Shown here one piece after another: positions 6,101 through 57,758 of a DNA stretch of 64,000 nucleotides. A program made the position numbers and the translations under genes. Where the stretch lies: positions 1,962 to 65,961 of the forward strand of contig WGDA01000153.1 in assembly GCA_015493505.1 (NCBI GenBank), given 5' to 3'. Under the pieces are notes generated by a model. It had not been told where the DNA came from. It did no database searches and saw only the letters and a program-made list of their open reading frames with translations. Origin of the DNA: Pseudomonadota bacterium (GTDB taxonomy: Bacteria; Desulfobacterota; S145-22). The first letter of the stretch is position 1. Every line of letters starts with the position of its first letter.

Positions 6101-7654
6101 TTATTCTTTTTTCTTCATTCCTGACAGGATGACTTTTATCAGGATGCCAGCCATGAAGAGAAGGCAGAGAAGGAGGAAGAGATTCCCGTATCGCTCGTAA
6201 AAGGTGGGGGGACCCTGCCTCAGGCGTACGACACCCCGGATAAAGCCTTCACTCTGCAGAGGCATCTTTACAAGGGTCCGTCCCGTGGGGCCGATGATTC
6301 CGGAAATGCCCGTTCCGGTGGCGCGGATGAGGTAACATCTCTCCTCCACGGCACGGTAGGCGCTTAAGCGGTAGTGCTGATATGGTCCCGGGGTGCGGCC
6401 AAACCAGGCATCGTTGGTGATGTTGACCAGCAGCCGGGCCCCATGCCGGACGAGCGCCCTGGAAAGGTCTGGGAAGATACCCTCAAAGCAGATGGTTACG
6501 CCAATCGGGCCGAATCCTGATTCAAGGGGCCTGATGACCTTTCCCGGTGTAAAGTCCTCTTCCGTTCCCACGATATTCTTCGCGAAGGGGAGCCACCGCC
6601 GAAGGGGGACGTACTCACCGAAAGGGACGAGGCGGACCTTGTCGTACCGCCCCAGGACTTTCCCGTTTCTCGAGAGCAGGTAGGCGCTGTTATGATAAAT
6701 GGTTTTGCCGGCTATCACGTCATAGGAAGTAGCGCCGAAGATCAGCATAAAGTGGTCCCGACGGGCCAGGTCCACCACCCGCTGGAAGAGGTTCGGTTCA
6801 TTCTGGATGTAAAACGTGAGTGCCGCCTCAGGCCAGACGACGAGATCAGGTTGAAAGCCGCTCACGGCCTGCCCGGAGATGCGAAGGTACCGTTTCAGCC
6901 CCTTGAGCTCCCAGGACGGTTTCCACTTGACGGATTGATCGATGTCCGGCTGGACGAGACAGACCTTCACTGTTTTCCAGGCGCGAATCTCTTTGAGCAC
7001 CCTTGGGATGCGCGTGTACCCATACCCCCAGACGACGATCATGAGAAGGCAGAGGAAAATGAGCTGGGCGAAGGCGGCGGGGGTTCGCTTTTCCCTGCTG
7101 TCGAGCCAGATTCTGAAGATGAGATAGTTGACGAGATAGATAAGGAATCCCAGGCCGTAAATCCCAGTAATATCCACGATTTGGGACAGAATTAAGTGGG
7201 GTGGCAAAGCCATTTCGAGCCCGCCCCACGGGAACCGGATCAGGGGAAGCCCACGGATGTACTCGATGAGCGTTGCCGCGAAGGGGAAGAGATAGGTGCA
7301 TTTCCAGCGATTCAGGAAGACATAAGTGACTCCCATCATTCCCCAGTAGAGGGAGAGGTACAGGATAAACAGCAAGGTCAGGGCCGCGGCGCCCCAGATC
7401 GGGAGGCCGCCGTACCGGTAAACGGAGACGCTGATCCAGTACATGGTGGTTGAAACGTGGATGACCCCCACGTAAAAACCTGACAGGAAGCCCTTCTTTA
7501 AGGAAGATTGCCAGTGCAGCAGGATGAAAAAAGGGATGAGGGCCAGCCAGATAAAGCCGTAATATCCGATAGGGGGAAAGGAGACGGTGAGCAGCGTGCC
7601 GGTCAGGGCGATCAGTGCCCATTCTCTTAAAAACTTTTTCCCCTTTTCTTTCAT
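6101..7654 (-). CDS. lnt: Apolipoprotein N-acyltransferase
   Basis: 517 aa. N-terminal multi-TM region followed by a CN-hydrolase domain, with the architecture typical of Lnt. Confidence 0.85.
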   Translation of the reverse strand: MKEKGKKFLREWALIALTGTLLTVSFPPIGYYGFIWLALIPFFILLHWQSSLKKGFLSGFYVGVIHVSTTMYWISVSVYRYGGLPIWGAAALTLLFILYLSLYWGMMGVTYVFLNRWKCTYLFPFAATLIEYIRGLPLIRFPWGGLEMALPPHLILSQIVDITGIYGLGFLIYLVNYLIFRIWLDSREKRTPAAFAQLIFLCLLMIVVWGYGYTRIPRVLKEIRAWKTVKVCLVQPDIDQSVKWKPSWELKGLKRYLRISGQAVSGFQPDLVVWPEAALTFYIQNEPNLFQRVVDLARRDHFMLIFGATSYDVIAGKTIYHNSAYLLSRNGKVLGRYDKVRLVPFGEYVPLRRWLPFAKNIVGTEEDFTPGKVIRPLESGFGPIGVTICFEGIFPDLSRALVRHGARLLVNITNDAWFGRTPGPYQHYRLSAYRAVEERCYLIRATGTGISGIIGPTGRTLVKMPLQSEGFIRGVVRLRQGPPTFYERYGNLFLLLCLLFMAGILIKVILSGMKKKE

Positions 7655-22047: not shown

Positions 22048-22187
22048 TCTTTACCCTCCGCCCGTGAAAATTACATGATGGCGGTGAAAAGTCAACTGTG
22101 GCGGCGATGAAAGGCATCCGAAAGGGATGCCGGGGAACATGATCGAAATTTTAATTTTTCAGGGGCAAATAGGGATGGAAATGGTTT

Positions 22188-22305
22188 TTCACGGGATTGC
22201 CCATTTTATCAAACGGGCAGGAAGGATTCTAGAGAAGGTCGTATCATTGTCACGGGTAAAAGCCTCTCCTTCCCCAAAGCACGGCTGAGGGTTTCGGCGC
22301 GGCGG
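22188..22305 (+). repeat. Direct repeat R1 (~118 bp), left boundary of the defense island
   Basis: About 94% identical to 34609-34726 in the same orientation, beginning ttcacgggattgcccattttatcaaacgggcaggaagg. Confidence 0.8.
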
Positions 22306-22381
22306 GTGTGGATTCGGTTCCCTCTGCCATATCAAACGCGGTGAAGTTGAAACCCAAGTCTCCAGATTGCAGTCAGATCAC

Positions 22382-22873
22382 TCATTGTTCAATTGCTTTT
22401 GCTAATTCCATTGCCCTTCCAACTCGGTTTTCGAAAAGAAGGTCCCAGATGTCCAGGCATCGATTGGCAACTTGGCTGTTTCGCTCTCCTTGAGCCTGTT
22501 CATATAACCGCAGAAGAATGGATGATAAATCCGATGCAACAAGGGGATACCAAGAACCAGTGTCGCGGCTTTTTTCTTGGAGGGTTGTGGAAAACACTTC
22601 ACAGACAGCAAAGATCGCATCTGCGACAAGAATGAGGCTTCCTGCAAGATCTTTCAACGACCAGACGAAATGGCCAGGATCGTCTGCAAAGGCTTGTGAG
22701 CTGATATAATCCTTTACAAATGCCGCATATGCCGGATCGTTAATTAAATCTTTGTTTCTGAACATGCCGCGTAACTCGGCCCGGACCCCTTTATCAGGAT
22801 CATTCATGAACCTGCGTAAGAGCATTTGACATTGCTGGGAATATTTCTGGTCCTGCAGCAATGCTGCGGCCAC
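22382..22873 (-). CDS. Hypothetical protein, 163 aa, immediately downstream of and co-oriented with the STAND NTPase gene
   Basis: ORF with no recognisable motifs. A 15-nt gap separates it from the 1381-aa gene. Confidence 0.4.
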   Translation of the reverse strand: MAAALLQDQKYSQQCQMLLRRFMNDPDKGVRAELRGMFRNKDLINDPAYAAFVKDYISSQAFADDPGHFVWSLKDLAGSLILVADAIFAVCEVFSTTLQEKSRDTGSWYPLVASDLSSILLRLYEQAQGERNSQVANRCLDIWDLLFENRVGRAMELAKAIEQ

Positions 22874-22888
22874 GTTGGCGACACCCTT

Positions 22889-25800
22889 TCACTGCGGCAC
22901 GGTTCCCCGGCAGCACACGGCAAACTCTTTTTCAAAAAAACCGTGAAACAGCCACCGGGCCGTGATCTGCCTTGCCCCCTGAAAGGCCACCTCATCCAAG
23001 GAAGACATGGCCATTTGTTGAATAACCGAACCGACCTGATCGATATGGCTTGGAACGGTATAATCGAAAAAGCGTAAAGCCCGTGGAGATGCAGGGACTC
23101 GCAAATCATCCTTACACGCCTCGCAAAACCAATGGACAGCCAAATCTTTGTCAACATTCAGGATAGGTTCAATGGCCTCGATGGCCGCCATTCGCACCAC
23201 CGGGTGAGGGTCACGCACAAGGGACTCAATGCCGGGCCTGACCTGCTCCAGACAGCCGTTACGTTCCTGGAGCAATCGCCCGATTGCGCCAGCGGCCACG
23301 CCACGGACACAGTTGATGGTGTTCTGAAAAAGAACTTCGACCGTAGCCGTAGCTTCGTCACTATTCTTGTTACAATAGAGATTCAAATTGCCTGGTTCCA
23401 GGTCCGGATGGCTTCGGGCATAATGGACCATCCGGGCAATGGTCCTATCCGACCAGGATTCATCGGCCCTCTCCGCGATCAAGCGGCAGAACGACGTGGC
23501 GGTCTCCCGGTCGTCGCCGGATTGGTATCTTTGCAGCACGGCTTCAATGGTTTCAACCCTTGCCGGCTGCCAGGATGCCTTTTCAGATTCAGGCACTTCT
23601 TGTCCTGGCTGCTTTTCCCTCAATCCGTCCAGGATGGCGGAAATATATGCCGGATGGACGTCATCCGGGAACCGCAGGGCAAGCCGGCCGAAGCGTTCCG
23701 GGTACCTCTTGGCGATCCGGGCCAGGCTTGAGGCAAATTGACGAATGGATGTTGTGATCACATAATCCGGATCGACCTGAATCCATTTACCATGATCAGA
23801 CTCAGGGACTTTCTTACTTGTGACGATCTCAAGCCATGCCCGGTCACTGATTTTTTCAAGATTCGTATCGAGTTTGGAACCTATTGTACCACCGGAGATT
23901 CTGCCGCCCCTAAGAAACTGCTCTTTGGGGTAGTTCGCAAATTTTCGTTCCAACAAGCGGATCAAGGCTGCCGTTGCCGGACGAATTCTTTCGGTGTCGA
24001 GCGCAGGCAGCAGAAAATATTGGGTCTTCCCCCAATAATGGCCGAAAAATCCATCCCGCCAGCCTTTCAGATAATGTTTTGCATCTCGTTTTTCTTCCGG
24101 AGCATGGTAATGAACAATGGCCTCTTCAATCTGACGAAATAGTTTCTCGGAACAGTAAGGAGACAGCGCCTTGATGAGCCGCACCGCAGGCATCCACTCA
24201 GGCTCATGATAGCCGGACCCGAGCCGAAACCGGGCAGGATCATGGAGCAGCCAGGATATGCCTGTATCCGCGTGACTGGCAGGCAAATGGGCATAGGCCG
24301 CGATGATGATTTCTTGAACCACGGACGAAAAGCTCCTTTCAAGGAGATCAACCCGCGCTATCAGTTCATCGGGCTGTCCTGATGCCAGAACCTGTCCGGA
24401 CAGGACGAGCAGTTCGACAACACCTCTATCAATATCAGTTTCGTTCCTGGCAAACTGCTCATCCATCCACCTTCGTAACCTTGGATCGTAATAATCGGTC
24501 TGGATGTCAGTCAATCTCTCCACATGAGGCATCAGCAGGTCCCAGGTCTGGGACGGATACCTCTTCACTGCATCGTTCAACGCTTCAAGATCCCGGTCAT
24601 ACCACCGCTCCACCCGGCCTCTTCTGCTTCCGAAGGGCTCCTCGTCATCCACGTTCCAGATGGAAAGCACCGCCTCAATCAACCGGACAGCACGAAGAGG
24701 GTATTTGACACAAAGGCCTTTCCAGTCAACGAAATCCTTCACATATCCGAGCCGGACCAGTTGCAGCCGTAGCTCGAACATCTTTTCGGAATCATCCGCC
24801 TCCCTCCAGCAAAGCGTGTTCAAGACACGGGCAGGCCACTCACCGCCTTTGTCCACAAATGGCGCAAGGATTTCCGTCACCGAGTCGGGGATATGCTCTG
24901 CCACCGAGCGCAGCAGCCACAGGGCAAGGTTGATTTCGTGATCATTTGCCGATTCGAGCCATTTCGAGATGATCCCGGCGTCCAAAAGATAAGCTATCCA
25001 CGGATGGTGTCCCAAAAACACTGTCTCCAGAACATGGTCCTGCCAGTCGGGATCATCAAATAGTTCAAGGAGATAGCTGCCAAGCCCGCCGATAATCTGG
25101 TCCATCTGGCCAATCAGCTCAAGGACTAGGTGCTTGAGGTGAAAACGAACAGCATGTGATTCAAGGAGATCACGGATCGTGTCGAAAAAGACTTCCGGCG
25201 ATTCTTCCGCCAGTATAGCAAGGACCTGGCGCAGTTGCTCGCGCCGAAACAGCGACTGGTTCTGCCTCGGCCCCAGCCAGTCGATCACCGAACCGGTTCC
25301 TTGGTAGAGTTTCTGAAGCAGGCGCTCGGCAATCAGGTGGTCCAAATACCGTTGATGGCAAAAGCTTATTCTTCCCGCACCTTGCTGAAGAATGCCGAAT
25401 GAGATGAAGGCATCCCGCATAACCGGGTCTTTTGCCACCATCGTGGCAGGAGCCGAGAGTTCCCCTCGGCTTTCCATGTAATCGAGCAGTGGAGTCAGGA
25501 AGACATCCATTTGCGCAGCGGAGATTCCTGCTTGCTCCTCAAGAAGCTGGCGGCGGTTTTCCCAGAAGCGGTGCATCAGTTCGGTAGCGGTGCGAAACGT
25601 TGGCGCACTCCCTTCCTTTTTGATCTCCAGACAGATGGCCAGGTTCTGCGGACAGGAAAGAATGCGTTTTTGAGATTCGTTCAGGGCGGCAAAGGCATCG
25701 GGCCCGATGACCTCTTTCAACTGTTCTTCTGGAAACTCCCCAACCGGAACCTTGACAACACCCTGCTCGCTGCTGTCAGCGAATAGCTTCTTGATTTCCG

Positions 25801-27034
25801 GATCGTTTTCCAGATCAAAGGTGCGACAGGCAAAGACGATGATGTTCTGTTTCCCGGTGCGGCGAAGGAACCGAACCTGGCGGAGCAGTTCCTTGCACAC
25901 ATCCATGGCTGAGGAGGAATGGGAGGCGGTCCAGCGGATGGCGTCGAGTTGATCCAGGATGAGAACACATCTTCTGTCAACAGCCAAACCCGCCAGGCAA
26001 TAGGCGGGAGACTCGGGCAGGCCCAAATCATTTCCGAATTGTCTGGCTGTATTCTTGGGAATGCGCCTGTCAAGCCGAATGGGAAGAAAAGGGATACTCT
26101 TTTGGCGAAGATACTCCGCCAGTTCATATAAAACACCGCTCTTCCCGTTTCCCGCTGCCCCATGCACCACCACATCTCGCCCGTTGTTAATGGCTTCAAT
26201 AATCCGGGAGGTCGCCTCCCTGGGGATGATTTCGCTGTTTATCAGGCCGGGGCCGATGGAATCAGAGAACTGTTTTTGCAACTCTTCTACGGCAGGCGCA
26301 ATTCGGGTGTCGTGCTGGAGGCGCTTCGGATAGATTTTGTGACATTCGGCAAGGTGGGTCCGTAAATCATCCGCATAAATGGGTTTGCGGTATTTGTCTT
26401 CGTTTTCGACATAGGTAAGCAGAACAGCAATTGCGGTTTCAGGATCACCGGTCAGAAGGAAGCCGGCCCATGTCAGGAGATCATCCCATGTATTGCGGTC
26501 ATCGGGGAAAAGCTCAATACGGGTGCGCTTGAGATAGTCGAAGGCTTTTTCGAGGTCATCCTCTGTTTGGGGATTAAGGCCAACCGCGTCACAAAAGTCG
26601 TGGAAAATTTTACGACGCTCTTGGCTAATTGCCTGAATTTGAAATTGATAAAAATCCCTTGGGTTATCATCGGAGTTTCTGGCGCTTTCACAGGTATCCG
26701 CAAAGGTGCGCGCCGGGATTGTCGATATAAGTGTGAATTCATTGTTTGGAGCGCGATTCAGATGGTCCTTCAAGTGTCCCAGAATCCCCTTGTTGCGTAA
26801 TAGCGCTATGGACCAGGATGCGCGGCTGCCGCAACGGGCCTTGCACTGCTGCAACTGCCGGACACCATCCTTGTCCACAACCAGCAGATCAACCCCCTGC
26901 TCTTCCGGGCCGATAAGCTCCACAGTGACCGATTGAATCTCCTCGTTCAACAGCCGGAGAAGCTGCCTGGCAACCCACCGGCCCTCATAGCGGTTGCCGA
27001 GCTTTTCCGACATGCCGCCTGGTTCAAAGGCCAT
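22889..27034 (-). CDS. STAND-type P-loop NTPase with N-terminal Mrr-like PD-(D/E)xK nuclease domain and C-terminal HEAT/ARM-like repeats (Avs-like candidate antiviral protein)
   Basis: The N-terminus (VELIGPEEQGVDLLVVDKDG...QQCK) fits a D...(Q/E)xK nuclease core. Walker A is VVVHGAAGNGKSGV and Walker B is RCVLILDQLDAI. The long alpha-helical C-terminus contains HEAT-like PVVRMAAIEAIEPIL. It lies directly downstream of hsdM in the same orientation. Confidence 0.6.
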   Translation of the reverse strand: MAFEPGGMSEKLGNRYEGRWVARQLLRLLNEEIQSVTVELIGPEEQGVDLLVVDKDGVRQLQQCKARCGSRASWSIALLRNKGILGHLKDHLNRAPNNEFTLISTIPARTFADTCESARNSDDNPRDFYQFQIQAISQERRKIFHDFCDAVGLNPQTEDDLEKAFDYLKRTRIELFPDDRNTWDDLLTWAGFLLTGDPETAIAVLLTYVENEDKYRKPIYADDLRTHLAECHKIYPKRLQHDTRIAPAVEELQKQFSDSIGPGLINSEIIPREATSRIIEAINNGRDVVVHGAAGNGKSGVLYELAEYLRQKSIPFLPIRLDRRIPKNTARQFGNDLGLPESPAYCLAGLAVDRRCVLILDQLDAIRWTASHSSSAMDVCKELLRQVRFLRRTGKQNIIVFACRTFDLENDPEIKKLFADSSEQGVVKVPVGEFPEEQLKEVIGPDAFAALNESQKRILSCPQNLAICLEIKKEGSAPTFRTATELMHRFWENRRQLLEEQAGISAAQMDVFLTPLLDYMESRGELSAPATMVAKDPVMRDAFISFGILQQGAGRISFCHQRYLDHLIAERLLQKLYQGTGSVIDWLGPRQNQSLFRREQLRQVLAILAEESPEVFFDTIRDLLESHAVRFHLKHLVLELIGQMDQIIGGLGSYLLELFDDPDWQDHVLETVFLGHHPWIAYLLDAGIISKWLESANDHEINLALWLLRSVAEHIPDSVTEILAPFVDKGGEWPARVLNTLCWREADDSEKMFELRLQLVRLGYVKDFVDWKGLCVKYPLRAVRLIEAVLSIWNVDDEEPFGSRRGRVERWYDRDLEALNDAVKRYPSQTWDLLMPHVERLTDIQTDYYDPRLRRWMDEQFARNETDIDRGVVELLVLSGQVLASGQPDELIARVDLLERSFSSVVQEIIIAAYAHLPASHADTGISWLLHDPARFRLGSGYHEPEWMPAVRLIKALSPYCSEKLFRQIEEAIVHYHAPEEKRDAKHYLKGWRDGFFGHYWGKTQYFLLPALDTERIRPATAALIRLLERKFANYPKEQFLRGGRISGGTIGSKLDTNLEKISDRAWLEIVTSKKVPESDHGKWIQVDPDYVITTSIRQFASSLARIAKRYPERFGRLALRFPDDVHPAYISAILDGLREKQPGQEVPESEKASWQPARVETIEAVLQRYQSGDDRETATSFCRLIAERADESWSDRTIARMVHYARSHPDLEPGNLNLYCNKNSDEATATVEVLFQNTINCVRGVAAGAIGRLLQERNGCLEQVRPGIESLVRDPHPVVRMAAIEAIEPILNVDKDLAVHWFCEACKDDLRVPASPRALRFFDYTVPSHIDQVGSVIQQMAMSSLDEVAFQGARQITARWLFHGFFEKEFAVCCRGTVPQ

Positions 27035-27051
27035 TAAACGATCTCCCTTTC

Positions 27052-28536
27052 TCAGATCTGTTTTTCAAGTTCGATTGTAATCTCCCGAAAACTTTGCAGG
27101 GCTGCCTCTATACTCTCAATAATCTCTTCGGCCAGTACGTCCGGTTCCGGCAGGTTATCCAGATCAGTCAGGTTGGCGTCCTTTAGCCACAGGATATCGA
27201 GGCTGGCCTTGTCGCGGCTGATTATTTCCTCATAACTGAATTTCCGCCAGCGGCCCCCCGGGTTTTTCTCCGGGTGCCAGGTTTCCGTGCGTTTGTAGCG
27301 ATTGAGCGGATTATAGAGTTCGATGAACTCCTTAAGGTCTTCGTAGCGAAGGGGCTTTTTTTTCAGTGTGTGATGGATATTGGTTCGGTAATCATAGAAC
27401 CAGACCTCCTTGGTCTGTGGTTCTTTTGCCGCAGGACGATTGTTAAAGAAGAGCACATTGGCCTTGACCCCATGGGCGTAAAAGATGCCGGTGGGCAGGC
27501 GCAAAATGGTATGGAGATCCGTGGTCTCCAATAGTTTGCGGCGCACGGTTTCACCGGCTCCGCCTTCAAAAAGGACGTTATCCGGCACCACAATGGCAGC
27601 CTTGCCGGTGGTTTTCAGCATGGAGCGCACGTGTTGAACGAAATTAAGCTGTTTGTTGGAGGTAGTTACCCAGAAATCCTGGCGGTTATAGGTGAACTCT
27701 TCCTTTTCCGCCTTGCCTTCACCGTTGGTAATGGTGATGGAGCTTTTCTTGCCAAATGGCGGATTGGTGAGCACATAGTCAAAGGTCTGCTTCGGTGGGG
27801 CGATCAAGGCGTCGGTGGGATCAATGGACGGCTCAGCGTCAATATCACCAATGCCGTGCAAAAGCATGTTCATCAGCGCCAGGCGGCGGGTATTGGCGAC
27901 AATTTCGTTGCCAAAAAAGGTTTTGAACTTCAGAAATTCTTTCTGGGCCCTGTCCAGCTTGTAGTTTTTTGAGATAAACTCATAAGCACCGAGAAAAAAA
28001 CCGCCTGTGCCGCAAGCTGGATCGGCAATGGTCTTGCCGGCCTCGGGCCGCACACATTCCACCATCGCCTTGATCAGTGGCCTGGGTGTAAAATATTGCC
28101 CCGCGCCGGATTTCACGTCCTCCGCGTTTTTGGCAAGCAGTCCCTCGTAGATCTCGCCTTTGACATCGGCACCCATCATCGTCCATTGCTCTTTATCGAT
28201 CATGTCGATGATGCGATAGAGCATGGCCGGGTCCTGTATCTTGTTCTGGGCCTTGGTGAATATCTGACCCAGCATTCCCTTCTGCCGGCCAAGTTCACGC
28301 AATAACCGTACATAAAAGGCTTCCAGCTCCGCTCCCCGCCGCTTTTTCAGCTCCGGCCAGCAATATTCCGTCGGAATGCCGATATCCCGGTTATATGGAG
28401 GTTTGCCGTATTCGTCAGCCATCTTCAGAAAAAGCAGATAGGTGAGCTGTTCCAGGTAGTCGCCATAGCTCACACCCACGTCACGAAGGACATGGCAGTA
28501 ACTCCATATTTTTTGAACAATATTTGCTGTGTTCAT
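27052..28536 (-). CDS. hsdM: Type I restriction-modification system methyltransferase subunit
   Basis: N6-adenine methyltransferase motifs (LTNPPFG, and ADPACGTGGF for SAM binding) in a 494-aa protein. Confidence 0.92.
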   Translation of the reverse strand: MNTANIVQKIWSYCHVLRDVGVSYGDYLEQLTYLLFLKMADEYGKPPYNRDIGIPTEYCWPELKKRRGAELEAFYVRLLRELGRQKGMLGQIFTKAQNKIQDPAMLYRIIDMIDKEQWTMMGADVKGEIYEGLLAKNAEDVKSGAGQYFTPRPLIKAMVECVRPEAGKTIADPACGTGGFFLGAYEFISKNYKLDRAQKEFLKFKTFFGNEIVANTRRLALMNMLLHGIGDIDAEPSIDPTDALIAPPKQTFDYVLTNPPFGKKSSITITNGEGKAEKEEFTYNRQDFWVTTSNKQLNFVQHVRSMLKTTGKAAIVVPDNVLFEGGAGETVRRKLLETTDLHTILRLPTGIFYAHGVKANVLFFNNRPAAKEPQTKEVWFYDYRTNIHHTLKKKPLRYEDLKEFIELYNPLNRYKRTETWHPEKNPGGRWRKFSYEEIISRDKASLDILWLKDANLTDLDNLPEPDVLAEEIIESIEAALQSFREITIELEKQI

Positions 28537-29981
28537 GGCGTGTGCCCCTCGATTTCGCGCGTTAGATGTTTCCCCTTTTCCGTCAGGCGGTACTTCTGCA
28601 AACGGCTGTTTGGCTTTTCAGGGTAGGTGTATTCTATCAATCCCTGTTCAAGCAAATTCTTAATCATGCGTTTGAAAGCGCCTGTTTTTGTCTCAAGCCC
28701 CAGGGCCTTTGCCATCTCTGAAGACGAAAGAGGGGTATTTGAAAGGAGCGCCAAGAGGGTTTTCCACTGGGCCCCTGACTGGGCCCTCAACTGGGCCCTC
28801 GACTGGGGCTTCAACTGTGCCGATTTTTTAACGGGAATTGCCTTCGCCAATGGGAAGAGGAAACGTACTCGCAGGCCCAGTTCCCTGATGGAAGGTTCCG
28901 GGAACCCCAGGGCCGCCGTTTGACTGAAGATGCGTGGCACGCCGCTACCCCACTGTTCTATGAGATTCAATTCGCGAAAGACGCGGGCGATGACTGGATT
29001 ACGGATTTTGGAGATTCCTTGTTTCATGTCGTCGACCGTTATGCCGGGAGGCAGGATGCCGGGGTTTTCAATCTCAATGCGGTCATCGAAAAAAGCTATT
29101 CGGACGGGGCCGCCCCGCTGGGACCAGTCGGCGTGTACCAAGGCGTTGATAACCGCTTCCCGAAGCGGTTCCAGTGGAATGCTCCAAACATCCTTGCGCC
29201 GAATATTGGAGAAGTCCGCGCCGCGCATGGCGTGTTTTTTTAGAAACAGCATGATGCTGTCCACGGATTGCGGCAGAGGCTCCTCAATCTCAATATGGTC
29301 GAAAATTTCTGATTTGTCTGTGCCGATGAAGCGTCCGCATTGGACCCAGCAGTCTGGGAAATGAAAGGTCCGGTCACGGCCGAAAAGCAGCACGCCACCC
29401 TTGGAAGGGACGGTTTTGCCCTGATTCTGAACAAGGATTTTAAGGGTGCGCAGCGCGCGATCATTTAGCTCCCTGATTCCGGAAAACACGTGGCGGGCGG
29501 CATCCAGGTTAAGGCCGTTGATGGAAAGCTCCGGCATGGGCATTTCGTCAAAAGAAACCCCTTCCACTGAGCGGCGCAATTCTGCAATCAGCTCCTTGTC
29601 CGCCTGCCTATTGCTGGAGCCCAGGCGAACGTAAACTCCGTTTTCCGGGCCTTCCGCTTTCAGCCAATGGGGACGCAGATTGCTGAGGAATACCTCGACC
29701 ACGAGCAGGGTTTTCCCTTCAACAGTAACAAGCTCGATATTGGGAACCAGGCGTGGAGAGATAGAGTCTGCGATTAAGTTGCTCAGGCGTTCTTCTTCGT
29801 CCAGCGGGTCTTCCACGCCGACAACTTCACGGGTCTTGTCCCGCACTCCGATGATAACTCTTCCTCCGGCAGTGTTGGCGAAGGCGGTTAGCGTTTTCAG
29901 CAGGTTTTGTGGCGAGGACAGGTCTCGTTTGAACTCAAGGGTTTTGCCCTCCGGAGCCTTGAGCAGCTCAGTGATTTTCAT
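28533..29981 (-). CDS. Schlafen-like AlbA_2/HATPase_c_4 putative DNA-binding protein (COG2865 family) embedded in the hsd operon
   Basis: 482 aa with an N-terminal AlbA_2-like divergent ATPase domain (TAFANTAGGRVIIGV) and a C-terminal wHTH. It overlaps hsdS and hsdM by a few nt on each side. Confidence 0.6.
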   Translation of the reverse strand: MKITELLKAPEGKTLEFKRDLSSPQNLLKTLTAFANTAGGRVIIGVRDKTREVVGVEDPLDEEERLSNLIADSISPRLVPNIELVTVEGKTLLVVEVFLSNLRPHWLKAEGPENGVYVRLGSSNRQADKELIAELRRSVEGVSFDEMPMPELSINGLNLDAARHVFSGIRELNDRALRTLKILVQNQGKTVPSKGGVLLFGRDRTFHFPDCWVQCGRFIGTDKSEIFDHIEIEEPLPQSVDSIMLFLKKHAMRGADFSNIRRKDVWSIPLEPLREAVINALVHADWSQRGGPVRIAFFDDRIEIENPGILPPGITVDDMKQGISKIRNPVIARVFRELNLIEQWGSGVPRIFSQTAALGFPEPSIRELGLRVRFLFPLAKAIPVKKSAQLKPQSRAQLRAQSGAQWKTLLALLSNTPLSSSEMAKALGLETKTGAFKRMIKNLLEQGLIEYTYPEKPNSRLQKYRLTEKGKHLTREIEGHTP

Positions 29982-31542
29982 TTTTTCTCCTTCGGGATTT
30001 TTTGGATGGTCGTGTGGAGGCCTCCCGCTCCGCCTTGATGCGTTTCAGGAGTTCCGATGCAGGCGGGTCGTTAGGGTCCTGAGGCATGAGTTTGCCGGAA
30101 AAGGCCTTTTTGAGGATGGCCTGACGGAGAAGTTCGGCTTGTTTGAGGGCGTTGTCGATGGTTCCCTTTATATGTTTAGCAATTGTCAAATGAGTTTCCA
30201 ACTTAAGCAAGATATGTTCTTGTTCAGCACGTGAACAAATCGGTACTGGAACATGCTGAATATCTCTTAAGTAAATTGCCTGTTGTGCGGTAGCTCCAGA
30301 TATCGACACAAGGCGTTTGTTAATTGATGGAGATTTTAGGCTGTAAAGCAAATATGTACTAATTACGTGTGAATAAGTTTTCAATAGAATTACACTTCCT
30401 AATAAACAAAATTTTTCATTAGTATTAACAATGCACATTCTTCCAACAGTTGCCCCGCGACTGACAATAAGAATATCCCCGAATTCTGGATTACAGCGAA
30501 GCAGTGCTTTTCTGGCAGTTTCCTCAGATATAAACAAAGGGTCGGAAAACGAAACACCTTTATCTTGGATATCTTTTGCCGATAGAAAATATACTCCACT
30601 TTTTTCAATTTTAGGCCGAAAATGCTCACCGTCTGTAATCTTGAGTGACAAGTCATTGAGTTTAGTCCACCCCCACCCCTCGGGCAATTCCGGGAGTTCG
30701 GCCAGTTCTTTTTCGGTGAGCGGGGGCAGTTCCTTGGGTTTGCGGGGTTTGGTTGGTTTTTTGCCGGGTTTGCCCTGGGCCTCCCACTCCTTGATAGCCT
30801 GTTTCCATTCCTCCAGTTGCCGCTGATAGCGTTTCTCCCGCTCGGTTTTGGCGCGTGCCAGCAGTTCTTCGGCGGATTCCAGTTCGTCCGCGTGTTCCTC
30901 GCGCCACTGTTCGGTGAGTCGGCCGTCAAAGGCGGATTTGAGCAGGGACTGGCGGTATAGCTCCAGTTTCTCTTTCACCTTTTTCAGCTCTGCCACGGCC
31001 TTGTCCAGTTCGGAGAACAGCCGCTCGATTTTGGCCACGATGCGGTGTTGTTCGGGAAGGGGGGCTAAAAGAATTGGAAATTTTCTGGTTTCTGCCAGCG
31101 GAAGAGTTAATCGACCTGAACCTGTCGCCCTATCATGTGATAGTCGATAAATCCACGGCGTATTCATATATAATTCTAAATACTTAGGCAGAACAATCTC
31201 TTTAATTGGCTTTAGCAATCCTAATCCAACAAACAAGGAGACTTGTTCATGAAAATCAATGCGTTTAGCAAATCCTAAAGTACCAATTCTCGGAAAAACT
31301 ATGTCGTCAAACTCAGGGTCGCATCGTTTACAGAGTTCTGCATGATCTTTTTCAGAAATATATTTTTCATAAGCACTGAAATCGATAGGCTTAAACGGAC
31401 GGATATTTTTAATTGAAATGAACCGAATCCCTTTTGATTGATACTTGGGTGTTTTATGTGTGCCATCGGTAATTTTAGAGCAAACATCTTCCAATGCAGC
31501 TTGCACCCAACCTTTGGGGAGTTCCGTTAGAAAACTACTCAT
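29968..31542 (-). CDS. hsdS: Type I RM specificity subunit
   Basis: Two target-recognition domains separated by a long K/P/E-rich coiled-coil spacer, with the conserved LPPLxEQ-type motif PLPEQHRIVAKIE. The protein is 524 aa. Confidence 0.88.
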   Translation of the reverse strand: MSSFLTELPKGWVQAALEDVCSKITDGTHKTPKYQSKGIRFISIKNIRPFKPIDFSAYEKYISEKDHAELCKRCDPEFDDIVFPRIGTLGFAKRIDFHEQVSLFVGLGLLKPIKEIVLPKYLELYMNTPWIYRLSHDRATGSGRLTLPLAETRKFPILLAPLPEQHRIVAKIERLFSELDKAVAELKKVKEKLELYRQSLLKSAFDGRLTEQWREEHADELESAEELLARAKTEREKRYQRQLEEWKQAIKEWEAQGKPGKKPTKPRKPKELPPLTEKELAELPELPEGWGWTKLNDLSLKITDGEHFRPKIEKSGVYFLSAKDIQDKGVSFSDPLFISEETARKALLRCNPEFGDILIVSRGATVGRMCIVNTNEKFCLLGSVILLKTYSHVISTYLLYSLKSPSINKRLVSISGATAQQAIYLRDIQHVPVPICSRAEQEHILLKLETHLTIAKHIKGTIDNALKQAELLRQAILKKAFSGKLMPQDPNDPPASELLKRIKAEREASTRPSKKSRRRKNENH

Positions 31543-34304
31543 GCCGCAAGCGCCTCGTTCACCTCGTCAATGATCCGGTCCATGTCCGCGCCAAAGAGCT
31601 GCCACATCTTTCCCAGCCCCCCGTGGGCGTCAAACGGCGCCAGGTCCAGGTCGTTCCGTTCCAGGTGATAGGAGGCGGCGATATGGTCGCGGATCATGCG
31701 CAGCCATGCCATCTGTTCCTCGGTGAATTTCCGGCCTGCGCCTTCGTGCCTCTTGAATATCCATTCCTTGAAATTGCGGTTCACGGTCTCGGAAAAAGGG
31801 GTCAGCGTACTGTCAATCCCCGCCACCCTGCGGATCAGGGAGACCAGGGCGGTGAGTTCGCTGACAGGTGATTTGCCCTTGACATCATCCAGCATGGCGT
31901 AGGCGTCCCAAACCCGCAACGGGGCAAGGCGCGGACGGTCGGCGCGCAGTTTTCCCAGAACCTCCCGCAGCATCTGATAGGTGACGTCCCGCCGGCGGTA
32001 GGGCTGGTCATAAAAGATGGTGAGCGCCGTGAGTTTGTCCTTATTTTCCCGTAGAAAATCGGCAAACTCGCGAGTAAGCTTTTCCCCGTTTTCCCTGGCA
32101 TTGCCGTCCCATTCCGCCCGAAGGAGCCGGTCAATGTTCTGGTTGTCGATGACCTGTTCATGGATACGGCGGATGTTTTCCAGCATCTCGTTCAGCTCAC
32201 CAGTGAAGACGGTGGTGGCCTGTTTCGCCAGGATGGAAGCAACCTGTTTACGCTGATCTTCGTCTGGTTCAACCTTTATTGACAGTTTAAACTGCTCTCG
32301 GGCCTGCCGTTCTATCCTGTCCGGATCAACCGCCTCCAGCAGCTCCCGGGCGATACGGGTCAGGGGCTTGCCCGCCTTTTGGGCGACCTGATCCCGCTCT
32401 TTGTCGTCAAGCTGCTGATTGAGGCGCGCCAGGCGATTCGCCAGGGAGGTCAGGGTGTCTTCATCGTCCGCGCCCATGAGCACGGACATGAGCAGGTCCT
32501 TGAAGGAGACCGAGGGCTTGCGTTCCAGAGGGCGGCTGTCGGTTTTGAGGGATTTGGTCACGCCCACGGCGTCCACGATGACGAAATGGTTTTTGGGTCT
32601 GATGGCAGACGGGGTCACCTTCTTGAGGTCGTCATGGCTCAAGACTCGTGTACCGCGCCCCTTCATTTGCTCGAAATAGTTGCGGGATCGGACATCTCGC
32701 ATGAAGAGGAGGCATTCCAGCGGCTTGACGTCGGTGCCGGTGGCAATCATGTCCACGGTGACCGCGATACGGGGGGCGTATTCGTTGCGGAACTGGGCGA
32801 GGACCGATTTGGGGTCTTCCTCGGACCGGTAAGTAACCTTTTTGCAGAAGGCGTTGCCTTCGTCGAACACCTCGCGAACGATTCGGATGATGTCATCGGC
32901 GTGGCTGTCGTTCTTGGCGAATATCAGGGTCTTGGGCACTTCTTTCCGGTTGGGAAAGATGTCCGGCAGCTTTTCCTTGAAGGTACGGATTACCTTACGG
33001 ATCTGACTGGGGTTGACCACGTCGCGGTCGAGTTGGCTGCCGCCGTATTTCAGGTCTTCATCCAGGAGTTCCCAGCGCTTTTTGCGCGTGAGCTTGTCGC
33101 GTTTGGGCACGAGGCGCTTGGCTTTGAGTTCCGCGCCTTTCTGGGTGATTTCGGTTTCGATGGTATAGACATCGTAGCCCACGTTGACGCCGTCGGCCAC
33201 GGCCTGTTCATGGGTGTATTCGCTGACCACGTTTTCATGGAAAAAGGCGAAGGTGCGCTTGTCCGGTGTGGCAGTCAGGCCGATGAGAAAGGCGTCGAAA
33301 TAATCCAACACCTGTTGCCAGAGGTTATAAATGGATCGGTGGCATTCATCGATGACGATGAAATCGAAAAACTCGATGGGGACTTTGGGGTTGTAGACCA
33401 CCGGCAAGGGTTCCTTTTGGGTGAGGCGGTGCTCGGCCGGGTTTTCCAGCTCCGCGGCCTCGTCCAGGGGTTCGCCTTTGAGGATGGAGTAGAGACGCTG
33501 GATGGTCGAGATGACCACCTGGCTGGTGTCGGCGATGTAATTTGAAGAGAGGCGTTGCACGTTGTACAATTCGGTGAACTTGCGGTTGCCGTCGTTTGGC
33601 AGGTACGCCATGAACTCCTGTTCCGCCTGTTCCCCCAGGTTTTTGGTGTCCACCAGGAAGAGAACGCGTTTGGCGTCGGCGTATTTGAGGAGGCGGTAGA
33701 TAGAGGTGATGGCGGTGAATGTCTTGCCCGCGCCGGTTGCCATCTGAATAAGCGCCCTGGGCCGGCCGGCCGCGAATGATTTCTCCAGGCGGGTGATGGC
33801 TTCCACCTGCGCCTTGCGCAACCCTTTGGTGGATAGAGGCGGCACGTTTCGCAGACGGGCACGCAGCGTCAAAGGTTGCCGCGTCCATTCCCCCAAGGTT
33901 TGTGGTTGGTGAAACCAGAATACTTCACGTGACCGGGGTTTGGGGTCACGCTCGTCTCGGAACAGTGTGATCTCGCCAGTGCTTTCATAAAGCATGGGAG
34001 GAGCTTGGCTGTTTTTAACCCATTTCAACCTGGCCCCGGCATATTTGCCGGTCTGGTCCGCGACCACGCTGATTTTTTGGCCCATCTCCGGGCGTTTGGC
34101 CTCGATGATGCCGACGGGTTCGCGGTCGACGAAGAGCACGTAATCTGCTGGGCCACGGTCCGTAGGATATTCCCGCACTGCAATGCCTTTGGCTCTGCCA
34201 AAGTCGATTTTGCTCTTATCCTGCACCGACCAGCCGGCCTCGGTAAGCATTCGATCAATGCGGTCACGGGCGATCTGTTCCGGCGTCTGATTGGGCTGGC
34301 TCAA
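31539..34304 (-). CDS. hsdR: Type I RM restriction subunit (SF2 helicase with N-terminal PD-(D/E)xK nuclease)
   Basis: N-terminus ADYVLFVDREPVGIIEAKR, helicase motif I TGAGKT, and a DEAH-like DECH box, in a 921-aa protein. Confidence 0.92.
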   Translation of the reverse strand: MSQPNQTPEQIARDRIDRMLTEAGWSVQDKSKIDFGRAKGIAVREYPTDRGPADYVLFVDREPVGIIEAKRPEMGQKISVVADQTGKYAGARLKWVKNSQAPPMLYESTGEITLFRDERDPKPRSREVFWFHQPQTLGEWTRQPLTLRARLRNVPPLSTKGLRKAQVEAITRLEKSFAAGRPRALIQMATGAGKTFTAITSIYRLLKYADAKRVLFLVDTKNLGEQAEQEFMAYLPNDGNRKFTELYNVQRLSSNYIADTSQVVISTIQRLYSILKGEPLDEAAELENPAEHRLTQKEPLPVVYNPKVPIEFFDFIVIDECHRSIYNLWQQVLDYFDAFLIGLTATPDKRTFAFFHENVVSEYTHEQAVADGVNVGYDVYTIETEITQKGAELKAKRLVPKRDKLTRKKRWELLDEDLKYGGSQLDRDVVNPSQIRKVIRTFKEKLPDIFPNRKEVPKTLIFAKNDSHADDIIRIVREVFDEGNAFCKKVTYRSEEDPKSVLAQFRNEYAPRIAVTVDMIATGTDVKPLECLLFMRDVRSRNYFEQMKGRGTRVLSHDDLKKVTPSAIRPKNHFVIVDAVGVTKSLKTDSRPLERKPSVSFKDLLMSVLMGADDEDTLTSLANRLARLNQQLDDKERDQVAQKAGKPLTRIARELLEAVDPDRIERQAREQFKLSIKVEPDEDQRKQVASILAKQATTVFTGELNEMLENIRRIHEQVIDNQNIDRLLRAEWDGNARENGEKLTREFADFLRENKDKLTALTIFYDQPYRRRDVTYQMLREVLGKLRADRPRLAPLRVWDAYAMLDDVKGKSPVSELTALVSLIRRVAGIDSTLTPFSETVNRNFKEWIFKRHEGAGRKFTEEQMAWLRMIRDHIAASYHLERNDLDLAPFDAHGGLGKMWQLFGADMDRIIDEVNEALAA

Positions 34305-34608
34305 AGGTAATTCCCCAGATCGGACATATTATTTGCCATCGTGCTCGCAAAATGAGGTTTTACGACTTGAGTTTTTCACCATAAGGTAAAATCCATTCAA
34401 TATGAGCATTTTGGTTGTTGCCGATATTCCATAAAAACTATACCTCATTTGCCGCGTATTGTACAAGAATAATTTGAATAAAATTCGAATAGTTGAAACC
34501 GGTATCAATTGATCGATTCTTGATGGAGCAAAATGGGAGGGAGCATGGTGGGCGTATTAGCTCTCTCATTTATTTTCTTTATAAAAGAGGTAAAGCAGGT
34601 TGTGAGAT

Positions 34609-34726
34609 TTCACGGGATTGCCCATTTTATCAAACGGGCAGGAAGGATTTTAAAGAAGGTCGTATCAATGTCACGGGTAAAAGCCTCTCCTTTCCCAAAG
34701 CACGGCTGGGGGTTTCGGCGCGGCAG
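34609..34726 (+). repeat. Direct repeat R2 (~118 bp), right boundary of the defense island
   Basis: Matches 22188-22305 at about 94% identity. Confidence 0.8.
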
Positions 34727-35013
34727 ATCAAAGGTGAGTAGTTCCCCGCCTGCCTGTCCCTGCTCGCGCGCAGACAGGGGGCGGGAAGAAGTCAATCCTG
34801 AAGGGGTATCTGCCTGAGAAGGGGAAGAAGCGTCGGTTAGGAGGGAGGAGGGGGATGAAAATGGAAAGCCCCTGGCTCAAAACCATGGGCCGGATGCAGT
34901 ATCGTTTGCAGGGGATGGTTCCCTTTCGCATAGACAGGGGGGGCTTTTATATTGGCTCAACACAATATTGTCTGATTGGCATCGATGATCCAGAATACGC
35001 AATTTCCGTTCTG

Positions 35014-35325
35014 TTATATCCCGTAGGCATCATCATGAGGCCCGAGCAGAACGAACTTGATGGTTTTGTCCGGTGTTTCCCGGCAATCCGAGCAGGCCAC
35101 AACGACATTGTCGCCTTTTTTCCGGCACACTTCGCAATAGAGATAGATGATGATGAAATTGCGCTTCACCGGACATGAATAAAACCCCTGCCACTTACCC
35201 TTCAACGGTTCGCCGATGGCAATCGGGTTTTCAATAATCATGTCAACCTTTTTTTTGACCAGTTTTTTTATCGAGGCGTGCTTTTTAACAGCCTTCAGGA
35301 AAGCGACCTCAAATCTGGTTTCCAT
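35014..35325 (-). CDS. Type II toxin-antitoxin toxin, RelE/ParE family
   Basis: 103 aa with a RelE-like core (KGKWQGFYSCPVKRNFIIIY). Its start overlaps the stop of the upstream RHH gene in an ATGA arrangement. Confidence 0.6.
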   Translation of the reverse strand: METRFEVAFLKAVKKHASIKKLVKKKVDMIIENPIAIGEPLKGKWQGFYSCPVKRNFIIIYLYCEVCRKKGDNVVVACSDCRETPDKTIKFVLLGPHDDAYGI

Positions 35326-35582
35326 CAGTCCCCGAAGACCTCATCGTATGAATGCCACTGTGCTGTGCCATTGCGCAGTTTGGCCTGAGCGTCTTCCATG
35401 GCCCGCTGAAAAGCCGGATGAGCGAGAATTTTTTCCATATATTCGCCCTCGACACGCCGCTTCAGGGCAAGCAGGTATTGCGTTACCATGTCCGCAACCG
35501 ACGTGCGATTTTCGGCGGCAAAGATCTTGGCGAACTCGGCAAGATCCTGGTCGAGACTTACATTGAGACGGGTTTTGGGCAT
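35325..35582 (-). CDS. Ribbon-helix-helix antitoxin
   Basis: 85 aa. N-terminal PKTRLNVSLDQDLAEFAKIF is RHH-like (beta strand followed by a helix). It lies upstream of the RelE-like gene. Confidence 0.55.
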   Translation of the reverse strand: MPKTRLNVSLDQDLAEFAKIFAAENRTSVADMVTQYLLALKRRVEGEYMEKILAHPAFQRAMEDAQAKLRNGTAQWHSYDEVFGD

Positions 35583-35785
35583 AAAAAAACCTCCTTGTTT
35601 GTTCCTATTATACGCATATCAGGAACAGATGTCAAGGATAATAAGCTGCAAAGCACAACAGCCCCCAAGCACTTTAAAAAATACCGGGTCGGTGCGCCGG
35701 TTTGAGAGAAACCATCTCCTCCCCGATCTGGTCAAGGTATGCCTGTTTCCCGGGCAGCAGGGCGCAATCTCTTTGGGAACAAGGG

Positions 35786-35822
35786 GAAATAGAAAACCCA
35801 CCTGCCAGTCGGCAGACAGGTT
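35786..35822 (-). terminator. Rho-independent terminator downstream of ssrA
   Basis: On the minus strand, the ctgcc-gact-ggcag hairpin with wobble extensions is followed by a uuuucuauuucc U-rich tract. Confidence 0.45.
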
Positions 35823-35867
35823 GTCCCGGAGAATGACTCCGGAGAGACGGGTTGTCTTTTTTTTAAA

Positions 35868-36222
35868 TGGTGGAGGCGGCGGGAATCGAACCCGCGTCCG
35901 AGAGTCTTCGGCATGAGTCTCTACATGCTTATCCGACCTATTGCATTCGCCGATCAATTGCCGGTCGGCAGGCACCTTGATCGGCATAGCCTGAAGGTCT
36001 TAGCCGCTTTCCGTTAGGCAGCGAAAAACGGTGCAACCTGTCTCGATGACGCCTCGTCAGGGTGTGACAGGTTGACACCCTGGGAGACGTGGCGGTCAAT
36101 TAAGCCGCCAGAGCGTACTCGTAGTCGTTCGCATTTATGTTTATTTCCACCAGATTCCGGGCTGGCAGACCCCGGCATGCAACCCATACCTCAACTACTC
36201 CCGTCGAGCCCTTTTCGCCCCC
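35868..36222 (-). ncRNA. ssrA: tmRNA (SsrA), tag peptide ANDYEYALAA
   Basis: The minus-strand 5' end is GGGGGCGAAAAGGGCUCGACGGG and the 3' end is GGACGCGGGUUCGAUUCCCGCCGCCUCCACCA (tRNA-Ala-like acceptor with T-arm). An internal ORF reads GCG AAC GAC UAC GAG UAC GCU CUG GCG GCU UAA. Confidence 0.9.
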
Positions 36223-42434: not shown

Positions 42435-42573
42435 TACGCTCCTTTTTCAGATTTTCTTGAAATTTTTCCTCGTAAATGGTAGAGATGCTCATCAGGAAAG
42501 GCGATGAAGTCCGCCTCTAAACGCCAGCAGGCTGATGACTTCTTGCCGTGAAAAAGCGGGAAAGGAGGCCGTC

Positions 42574-43404
42574 ATGCCTGATCCGACACTTGTTGAACGC
42601 ACCTGCCAATATGTCCTTGAACGCCAATGCCAGTCAGGAGGTTTTTGTTTTTACCGCCTGGAAGAACCCAACGGGGCGGATACCTTTTATGCCCTCGCGA
42701 CGCTGCACCTGTTGGGGAGAAAGATTTCCTCTGAGGAGACCAGCCGGTTTCTGGAGGCCACCCAGAAAGAAGACGGGACGTTTGACAACCTGTATCAGGC
42801 GTATTACACTATTCAGGGTCTCGGGTATCTGAACAGGCCCTTGAAGCGGGATCCCCGGCCCTTTTTGGAGACCGTAATCAACCGTTTCCCCGTTGAGAAC
42901 GCCACGCTGGAGACACAACTGAAGCGCCTCGATATCCTGACCGATCTCTGCGCGGACCTCTGCGTGGAAATTCCTCCCAAAAGGCGGGAGTCGATGATTG
43001 ATTTCATCCTTTCCTACCGCAACGCCGACAAGGGGTTCGGCACGCCCTATTCCAGCCTGTTATCTACTTCTTACGCCCTGTCCTGCCTGGGAAAACTATC
43101 CTACCCGGTGTCCGGCCTGGAAGCGGACCGGTTTCTTCAGGCGTGCGAAAACCCTATTCACGGTTTTCTGGATGTGCCCGACATGGCCCCATCTTTTCTG
43201 GAACATATCCTGGCGGGTGCCGTTGCGTCGCGCGTGTTGGGGTATCGTCCCAGGTATCTGGATACGTGCCAGCAGTTTGTCACGCATTGCCAAAGCACGA
43301 ATGGCGGATTTTCCCGTTCACCGGGGGGGCTGCCCAGCCTTCAGGATACCTACCGGGCCATCCTGGCGCTGATTCACCTCGAGGCCATCGTCTCCGGGAC
43401 TTGA
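42574..43404 (+). CDS. Prenyltransferase/squalene-oxidase repeat (alpha-alpha toroid) protein
   Basis: Repeated QxxxGGF-like segments (QCQSGGFCFY, TNGGFSRS). Start is set at the ATG after the RBS ggaaaggagg; the ORF track begins at 42535. Confidence 0.45.
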   Translation: MPDPTLVERTCQYVLERQCQSGGFCFYRLEEPNGADTFYALATLHLLGRKISSEETSRFLEATQKEDGTFDNLYQAYYTIQGLGYLNRPLKRDPRPFLETVINRFPVENATLETQLKRLDILTDLCADLCVEIPPKRRESMIDFILSYRNADKGFGTPYSSLLSTSYALSCLGKLSYPVSGLEADRFLQACENPIHGFLDVPDMAPSFLEHILAGAVASRVLGYRPRYLDTCQQFVTHCQSTNGGFSRSPGGLPSLQDTYRAILALIHLEAIVSGT

Positions 43405-43519: not shown

Positions 43520-43687
43520 CAAGGGATGATGGTTTCGCAAGAAGTCAGAATTAGAAGGCAAAGTAAAAAGCTTCAAGTTCAAGGAGCGTAATTCCTGAGG
43601 AATGAGGCGACCTTGAAGGTCGTTGCAATGATTCACCCTGTTAAATCTCGCGAAGCGAGACGGCAAAGCCGATTTAACAGGGCAGGG
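43520..43687 (-). repeat. Copy 2 of the structured repeat, inverted relative to copy 1
   Basis: 43557-43640 is the reverse complement of 103-186 at about 95% identity, and 43641-43687 matches element B. Confidence 0.6.
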
Positions 43688-57468: not shown

Positions 57469-57545
57469 GGGGCGATTAGCTCAGCGGATAGAGCGTTGGT
57501 CTCCGGAACCAAAGGTCGCGGGTTCGATTCCCGCATCGCCCTCCA
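57469..57545 (+). tRNA. tRNA-Arg (anticodon CCG)
   Basis: Anticodon loop ctccgga with a GGTTCGATTCC T-arm. An integrase gene follows immediately. Confidence 0.85.
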
Positions 57546-57758
57546 TTTTTTAAGTTCTCTTGACATCTATTTTCCTTTATTTTATAAGACTTATAAGCGA
57601 TTTAACGGGATAGGATATTATGAGCTTGTTCTATAGAATTCTATTAAAAACCATCAAAAACCCGTTTAAAAATGGGAAAAAGTTGGGAAGAAATTGGGAA
57701 GAATGGCGGTGATGTTTAACAACAAATAACAAATCATCATAGATGGTTAGGAGACGTC

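Follow-up and report, generated by a model that had tools for sequence, protein, structure and literature searches.

A recombinase-less defense island bracketed by a 117-nt direct repeat in the ssrA neighborhood of an uncultured bacterium

We analyzed a 64,000-nt stretch of genomic DNA (hereafter the window; all coordinates are positions in it) from a poorly sampled, uncultured lineage of the "Deltaproteobacteria" type found in hydrothermal samples. The window contains a 12.3-kb block of defense genes bracketed by two copies of a 117-nt direct repeat, which we call R. The locus is a repeat-bracketed defense island without a recombinase gene in the neighborhood of ssrA, the gene for transfer-messenger RNA (tmRNA), and this architecture as such is known. 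Its unusual features are the long repeat that does not derive from ssrA, the inverted fragment of an ssrA T-arm that abuts the repeat, the empty canonical ssrA attachment (att) site, and the recurrence of a bracket of ~100 nt around the same cargo elsewhere. On balance, we lean toward the explanation that R is a local sequence of which a second copy arose as the island, in circular form, recombined into it, through an integrase acting in trans or through host recombination, and that the island is now decaying.

The FAH-proximal copy, R_left, lies at 22187-22303 and the ssrA-proximal copy, R_right, at 34608-34724, as supported by alignment, shuffles, and a hidden Markov model (HMM). The copies align without gaps, are identical at 112 of 117 positions (95.7%), have the same orientation, and are offset by 12,421 nt. 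Their first 42 nt are identical, and similarity drops off abruptly at either edge. A 42-nt probe from R matches only two sites in the window, where none is expected by chance (0 of 100 shuffles). A first-pass annotation of this DNA had described two direct repeats that enclose exactly the defense block. The repeats are real, only island genes lie between them, and the coordinates it gave were essentially right, with the start one base off and the end about two bases too long. R_right is also present in contig L009 of a same-species metagenome-assembled genome (MAG), and the same-species contigs L009 and L012 both have the same arrangement as the window, with no alternative seen. On the FAH side, the Logan contig L001 ends 30 nt into R_left, as would be expected of a k = 31 assembly graph that runs into a repeat.

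All genes between the repeats are on the minus strand, and domain matches identify a complete type I restriction-modification (R-M) system with intact hsdR, hsdM, and hsdS. From R_right inward, the block begins with an AT-rich leader of 303 nt (34305-34607, minus strand), part of which has a weak likeness to the sequence just after R_left. The leader is followed by hsdR, the restriction subunit with an EcoEI-type C terminus (31539-34304), hsdS, the specificity subunit (29968-31542), a gene inside the R-M operon that combines SLFN/AlbA_2 and HATPase_c_4 domains with a Fic-like_C winged helix (28533-29981), and the methyltransferase gene hsdM (27052-28536; MTase_I, E = 2.5e-196). The GC content of the block is 0.46-0.55, whereas that of the flanking housekeeping DNA is 0.57-0.62. 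As the first-pass annotation had noted, no integrase lies inside the island: genes fill 22382-34304, leaving no room for one, and Pfam searches of the open reading frames (ORFs) at 22-36 kb gave no match to Phage_integrase. The sole integrase in the window, a 451-aa tyrosine integrase (57759-59114), lies 23 kb away beside a tRNA-Arg gene, in a separate element.

The island gene nearest R_left (22382-27034, minus strand) encodes a nucleoside triphosphatase (NTPase)/HEAT protein of ~1,550 aa and is interrupted by a nonsense codon. It reads as two ORFs, of 1381 aa (22889-27034) and 163 aa (22382-22873), which the first-pass annotation had taken for a STAND gene and its partner. The longer ORF has a weak AAA_16 NTPase match and HEAT repeats, and the gene has a weak PADLOC match to PDC-M54A. 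Almost all of the ~750 homologs found are 1,546-1,552 aa long and span both ORFs. The two ORFs share one frame, and the in-frame TGA between them (22889-22891) occupies the position of an Arg conserved in all homologs (VPQ-R-KGVANVAA), which related loci encode as AGA, CGA, or AGG. Because of the full-length homologs, the common frame, and the position of the TGA at a conserved Arg, the 163-aa ORF is the C-terminal fragment of a single nonsense-split gene and not a partner. An identical TGA is found in an independent same-species assembly, MAG GCA_027055435.1, whose contig L012 shares 99.95% identity with the window across 19 kb. Our searches returned no viral relatives of the gene, and no solved structures or NCBIfam families for it.

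Relatives of the NTPase/HEAT gene are found beside ssrA in four other uncultured genomes, and these loci show where the island ends. In L013 (86% amino acid identity), tmRNA is followed by 190 nt, a 264-nt remnant of a window-like hsdM, the NTPase gene, ~200 nt, and an ssrA 3' remnant, GTTCCCACCACCAGT, with no integrase. In L014 (80%), the NTPase gene comes directly after a type I R-M operon different from that of the window, and L015/L016 (81%) have the order hsdS, Fic, hsdM, NTPase gene. Nucleotide homology between the window and L014 (83%) or L015 (85%) runs through the NTPase gene and a 78-nt spacer, and ends at window positions 22303 and 22308, respectively. The homology thus stops within 0-5 nt of the inner edge of R_left. 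The spacer begins, directly against R_left, with a decayed ssrA 3' fragment consisting of a T-arm and a degenerate acceptor end (22304-22336, plus strand). This fragment is inverted relative to the island genes and the resident ssrA, adjoins only one R copy, and lies outside the repeat. It matches the T-arm of the window's own ssrA at 19 of 26 positions, a score equaled by 6 of 2000 shuffles, and is positionally homologous to an intact inverted fragment in L014, identical to the window's ssrA at 21 of 21 positions, and to a near-intact one in L015. Beyond the T-arm fragment, L014 and L015 carry their own arm of ~200 nt, which has ..TCCACCA at its end, with an ssrA-type terminator after it. Because the arm in these relatives is a different one, R is not part of the island family, and we rejected the idea that it is.

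The fourth relative, L017 (GCA_027057345.1; 77% amino acid identity), offers a parallel to the bracket in the window. There, tmRNA and its terminator are followed by a 96-nt repeat, the NTPase gene alone, and a second copy of the repeat, again with no integrase. The two copies (2233-2328 and 7363-7458) are direct and 96% identical. The repeated sequence consists of what comes just after the ssrA terminator together with the 3' end of a convergent 4HBT gene, whose genuine 3' end is the distal copy. R and the L017 repeat have no sequence similarity. Judged from these sequences, L017 is a second, independent local-sequence bracket of ~100 nt and ~96% identity around the same cargo beside ssrA. 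A second, palindromic repeat pair in L017 (~165 nt, 91% identical; 1570-1732 and 8673-8833) flanks the wider ssrA region.

At the other end of the island, the outer edge of R_right lies at a distance of 1,143 nt from the 3' terminus of the gene for tmRNA (35868-36222, minus strand), in agreement with the ~1 kb of the first-pass annotation. Between them, also on the minus strand, are a DUF6364 antitoxin gene (35325-35582), a RelE/ParE-like toxin gene (35014-35325), and, downstream of this pair and just outside R_right, a GC-rich hairpin (34742-34788). The native ssrA terminator region (35760-35867, minus strand) directly follows ssrA, and L014 has a sequence homologous to window positions 35760-35876 after its island-distal ssrA remnant. 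The window's canonical ssrA att site is therefore unoccupied. No direct-orientation ssrA 3' remnant occurs between 22 and 36 kb; in this region, ssrA 3' patterns are confined to ssrA itself and to 22304-22336, where the pattern is inverted and decayed. The suggestion that ssrA acts as an integration hotspot for this island thus holds for the family, since the same cargo lies beside ssrA in L013, L014/L015, and L017, but not in its simple form for the window, where the canonical ssrA 3' site is empty and R is not derived from ssrA.

We propose the following account of how an island from an ssrA-associated family came to be bracketed by a sequence unrelated to ssrA. R would originally have been a local, non-coding chromosomal sequence downstream of the region containing ssrA and the toxin-antitoxin pair. 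A circular form of the type I R-M and NTPase/HEAT island may then have entered R by a single crossover, catalyzed by a tyrosine recombinase in trans or carried out by host recombination on ~117 nt of homology, which would leave a hybrid R copy at either end of the island, the counterparts of attL and attR. That the copies differ by 4% could reflect donor versus recipient alleles or later drift, and recombination between the two copies could allow the island to be lost or to circularize. The predicted empty-site junction would read ...CACCTTTGATCT-R-AAAACCATTTCC... and the predicted circle junction ...GAATCCACACCCG-R-TCTCACAACCTGC.... Members of the island family would normally ride integrative elements that target ssrA, and the window copy would have lost the usual arm and core beyond the inverted T-arm fragment. 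With no recombinase, its arm and core apparently lost, and a nonsense codon in the NTPase gene, the island is therefore best regarded as decaying and non-autonomous. The first-pass annotation had read the repeats as an attachment sequence or a duplicated target. The discrete low-GC island, the ssrA-side location of the cargo elsewhere, the end of island homology at the inner edge of R_left, and the L017 bracket favor that reading, but it does not extend to an ssrA-derived repeat in the canonical site.

Several observations weigh against this explanation, the first of which concern the FAH flank. Outward from R_left, the window contains a spacer of ~55 nt, a terminator-like hairpin (GGCAUCC-CUUUC-GGAUGCC followed by UUUCAU; 22113-22131, minus strand) that is the last element before the FAH promoter, the promoter itself, and the FAH gene. 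The closest FAH homolog, 95% identical and located on the 1-kb contig L010, is followed by homologs of at most 81% identity. L010 has 95 nt upstream of FAH. Its sequence is the same as that of the window up to and including the FAH promoter; upstream of ~22110, just past the hairpin, the two diverge completely, and the 33 bases that L010 has there are without a match in the window. It follows that the DNA was recently rearranged at the junction just upstream of the FAH promoter. Our closest relative thus departs from the window ~75 nt before R_left, on a contig too short to show what lies there. We saw neither an empty site nor a circular junction. R copies were counted only over the 64 kb of the window and the fetched loci. 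The outer flank of R_right has no att-like or ssrA-like feature; its best similarity to ssrA is not significant (770 of 2000 shuffles as good). An identity of 117 nt is long for the cores of tyrosine integrases outside tRNA genes. Finally, the same window holds another repeat family of ~115 nt, I1, at a similar identity (93%), and short dispersed repeats therefore exist in this genome.

More distant FAH homologs contribute to the history of the wider region. In relatives with 75-81% FAH identity, FAH adjoins a fluoride riboswitch and a gene with a Prenyltrans domain, an adjacency found in all relatives examined, whereas in the window 20.3 kb separate them. The separating stretch (~22113-42440) holds both R copies with the island between them, the toxin-antitoxin pair, ssrA, smpB, and six further genes, and the core genes ssrA, smpB, nfi, truA, and tadA are among its contents. 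We found no empty-site genome, and because the 75-81% relatives lack the whole 20-kb block and are too distant, they are of no use as empty sites for the island. In the window, the fluoride riboswitch (42491-42551; 43.9 bits) immediately precedes a 289-aa ORF (42535-43404) with a prenyltransferase alpha-alpha toroid domain and overlaps the start of this ORF, and the pairing of riboswitch and gene is kept in relatives L002-L008. To our knowledge, a prenyltransferase-toroid gene is an uncommon type of riboswitch-regulated gene.

The presence of I1 bears most directly on an alternative that we regard as unlikely but worth serious weight, namely, that R is a dispersed intergenic repeat, similar to repetitive extragenic palindromic (REP) sequences, miniature inverted-repeat transposable elements (MITEs), or small RNAs, whose copies flank the island by chance or through double-crossover exchange anchored in them. 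I1 resembles R in length and in the divergence of its copies, and one I1 copy lies in an intergenic region ~300 nt longer than in relatives. Both R copies are likewise intergenic, and within its own genome R could be counted only over 64 kb. Dispersal of R at many unrelated loci was the observation that the first-pass annotation had set against an attachment sequence. Over ~64 kb and public collections that lack the source genome, we found two copies and no dispersed set. An HMM built from both copies detected no third copy in the 64-kb window or in ~170 kb of fetched loci, and the 20- and 22-mers of R gave only one chance 20-mer match in GTDB representatives, JGI metagenomes, and IMG/VR. Evidently these collections do not include the source genome, so the word negatives say little about the copy number of R in its own genome. 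At the protein level, a spurious 90-aa ORF that spans R_right matched only itself, which served as the positive control, among 1.84 billion protein representatives; an earlier query with chimeric six-frame R peptides missed this known ORF, and we gave that insensitive search no weight. R also lacks the marks of a transposable repeat. It has no terminal inverted repeats (neither of its ends, TTTCACGGG... and ...GGCGCGGC, repeats the other in inverted form), no short target-site duplication is common to its flanks, and it has no significant fold. Moreover, the edge of R_left falls within 0-5 nt of the end of homology to related islands, which is unlikely if R dispersed independently, and the parallel in L017 argues in the same direction.

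As for I1 itself, its copies (103-217 and 43526-43640) are inverted relative to each other, internally palindromic, and unrelated to R. The copy at 43.5 kb lies in the lengthened spacer between the Prenyltrans gene and a tRNA-Thr gene. The I1 22-mer is absent from GTDB representatives, among which the source genome is not included, and scans that extended to JGI metagenomes and IMG/VR with R and I1 words gave nothing beyond the chance 20-mer match mentioned above.

We also examined whether R could be conserved for a function of its own. Each copy contains, on the minus strand, a sigma-70-like promoter with a consensus match of 10 of 12 positions: GTGACA, a 16-nt spacer, and TAGAAT in R_left (22226-22253), and GTGACA, a 16-nt spacer, and TAAAAT in R_right (34647-34674). 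These promoters are consensus matches only, of a kind expected 0.4-1.0 times per region. At its minus-strand 3' end, each copy also has a 9-bp hairpin, UGCCCGUUU-GAUA-AAAUGGGCA (22198-22219 and 34619-34640). A candidate transcript of ~115 nt (22106-22219, minus strand) would run from the promoter-like site in R_left to the terminator-like hairpin at 22113-22131, with the 9-bp hairpin at its 5' end and a 7-bp hairpin at its 3' end, and its predicted fold is better than that of shuffles (z = -3.2). Between the sequence directly after R_left and one that starts 57 nt beyond R_right, 25 of 34 positions agree (74%), a score that 136 of 3000 shuffles equal. If this marginal likeness is real, the ancestral duplicated unit may have been longer, with R constrained or recently homogenized within it. 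Upstream of R, in the sense of the island, no significant extension of homology was found (295 of 2000 shuffles as good).

From these features, one could suppose that a functional cassette exists here in two copies as R, made up of a promoter and 5' stem-loop or of a small-RNA gene's 5' part, and that selection or gene conversion keeps the copies 96% identical, with one driving the hsd operon and the other a short transcript that ends at the hairpin at 22113-22131. The steep fall from 96% inside R to 74% after it fits such constraint. However, promoter matches of this quality are not rare, R has no Rfam match, and R alone, whose folding the first-pass annotation had proposed as a check for conserved structure, folds no better than shuffles (z +0.8 to -1.1). 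FAH has its own promoter downstream of R_left (TTGACT, a 16-nt spacer, and TAATTT; 22068-22095, minus strand), which is kept in relatives; R is therefore not needed as the FAH promoter, and we rejected that role. A functional cassette would in any case explain why R is conserved rather than why it brackets the island, and it is compatible with duplication by integration. We consider it quite improbable as an explanation of its own.

Other identities for R were examined and rejected. Although three frames are open, R does not appear to be coding, because substitutions between the copies are almost all non-synonymous and its only homolog is the spurious 90-aa ORF. No match to a tmRNA body, tRNA, or Rfam family was obtained at the gathering threshold or at E <= 10, and the fold scores given above also speak against a structured RNA. 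An integron attC site is likewise excluded: R has no such fold, no RYYYAAC or GTTRRRY cores were noticed, and the enclosed segment is a 12.3-kb multi-gene operon.

Combining the integration and promoter features, we can imagine, as a speculation that we think unlikely to be right in full, that the cassette family moves without any dedicated recombinase. Recombination between imperfect direct repeats of ~100 nt would release a circle, which would re-enter related genomes beside ssrA by a single crossover and gain a new local bracket each time, R in the window and the unrelated 96-nt repeat in L017. In addition, R may be where a small RNA gene has its promoter and 5' end; the island would have split this gene and would now use R to drive its hsd operon. 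The most classical alternative, that the R copies are ssrA-derived att sites of a tmRNA-integrated island, might be suggested by the ssrA 3' remnants that bound the cargo in L013, L014, and L015 and by the T-arm fragment beside R_left, but it is contradicted by the tests made and is highly improbable: R resembles neither tmRNA nor the window's ssrA, the att site at the resident ssrA is empty before its native terminator region, the T-arm fragment is inverted, outside the repeat, and beside one copy only, and no direct-orientation remnant occurs at 22-36 kb.

Several further features of the window and its relatives were observed. In L015, the slot between hsdS and hsdM (L015 331-1347) is occupied by a Fic gene that shares only the C-terminal Fic-like_C domain with the SLFN gene of the window, and nucleotide homology picks up again 115 nt before hsdM. 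By sequence comparison, this looks like an N-terminal domain swap (SLFN/AlbA_2 and HATPase_c_4 versus Fic) in an otherwise conserved operon. The same-species MAG contigs L009 and L012 both end at 31827-31953, inside hsdR, where they overlap by 127 nt, which suggests an assembly-graph branch and possibly strain variation near the hsdR/hsdS boundary. Beside R_right, a 67-aa ORF (34728-34931, minus strand) overlaps the GC-rich hairpin at 34742-34788; it has no Pfam, PADLOC, or NCBIfam match and is probably not a gene. Farther away, the tRNA-Arg gene (CCG) is followed by the 451-aa integrase and then by a DnaG-like primase with zinc-ribbon and Toprim domains (61287-62369), and the region 57470-62369 appears to be a separate integrated element running toward the end of the window.

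The locus adds a further case to the small set of repeat-bracketed defense islands without a recombinase, in a poorly sampled hydrothermal lineage. It also draws attention to an uncharacterized protein of ~1,550 aa with NTPase and HEAT regions, usually appended to type I R-M operons, whose gene occurs beside ssrA in several junction formats: with a canonical ssrA remnant, with a long local-sequence bracket, and with a bracket abutted by an inverted T-arm fragment. Recognizing the nonsense codon corrects an annotation trap in which one split gene is mistaken for a two-gene system. If long brackets of this kind do reflect recombinase-independent integration, defense cassettes could spread without mobility genes, by a route that island finders based on integrases or tRNA fragments would miss.

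Comparison with known systems places the island between several classes. Cis-mobilizable elements (CIMEs) are att-flanked remnants of integrative elements that are mobilized by the integrase of a related element. The island resembles them in being flanked by repeats, in having no recombination genes of its own, and in belonging to a family found elsewhere in a canonical att site; unlike them, it has no cognate integrase or partner element at its locus. REP sequences and bacterial interspersed mosaic elements (BIMEs), MITEs, and "mobile promoters", as generally understood, share with R a length of ~100-120 nt, an intergenic position, and a promoter-like motif, and the window does contain a repeat family in I1. 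R differs from REP/BIME sequences and MITEs in that two copies are seen, without terminal inverted repeats, target-site duplications, or a strong palindrome, and in that these copies stand at the ends of an island.

Defense islands with direct repeats downstream of tmRNA are known in Pseudomonas (PMC12595487). Islands of this and the Islander type share with the locus their defense cargo, ssrA neighborhood, and direct-repeat bracket, and the cargo relatives L013, L014, and L015 are closer to them still, ending in ssrA 3' remnants of the ..TCCACCA type. The window island differs from the Islander type in having no integrase beside tmRNA, in a non-ssrA repeat of 117 nt in place of a 14- to 20-nt ssrA 3' core, and in starting 1.1 kb from ssrA, with the toxin-antitoxin pair and the native terminator in between. 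A second point of comparison is the genomic island for microcin H47 in E. coli, which has no recombinase and is flanked by long imperfect repeats (PMC5426353), together with the "unconventional circularizable structures" of Palmieri et al. (2013), as cited in the same paper. Cargo and organism differ from those of the H47 island, R appears to be a local target sequence, and neither excision nor a circular form was seen here. What the locus has in common with the H47 island and the unconventional circularizable structures is a size of ~12-13 kb, the absence of a recombinase gene, and extensive imperfect direct repeats able to support the excision of a circle and its re-integration.

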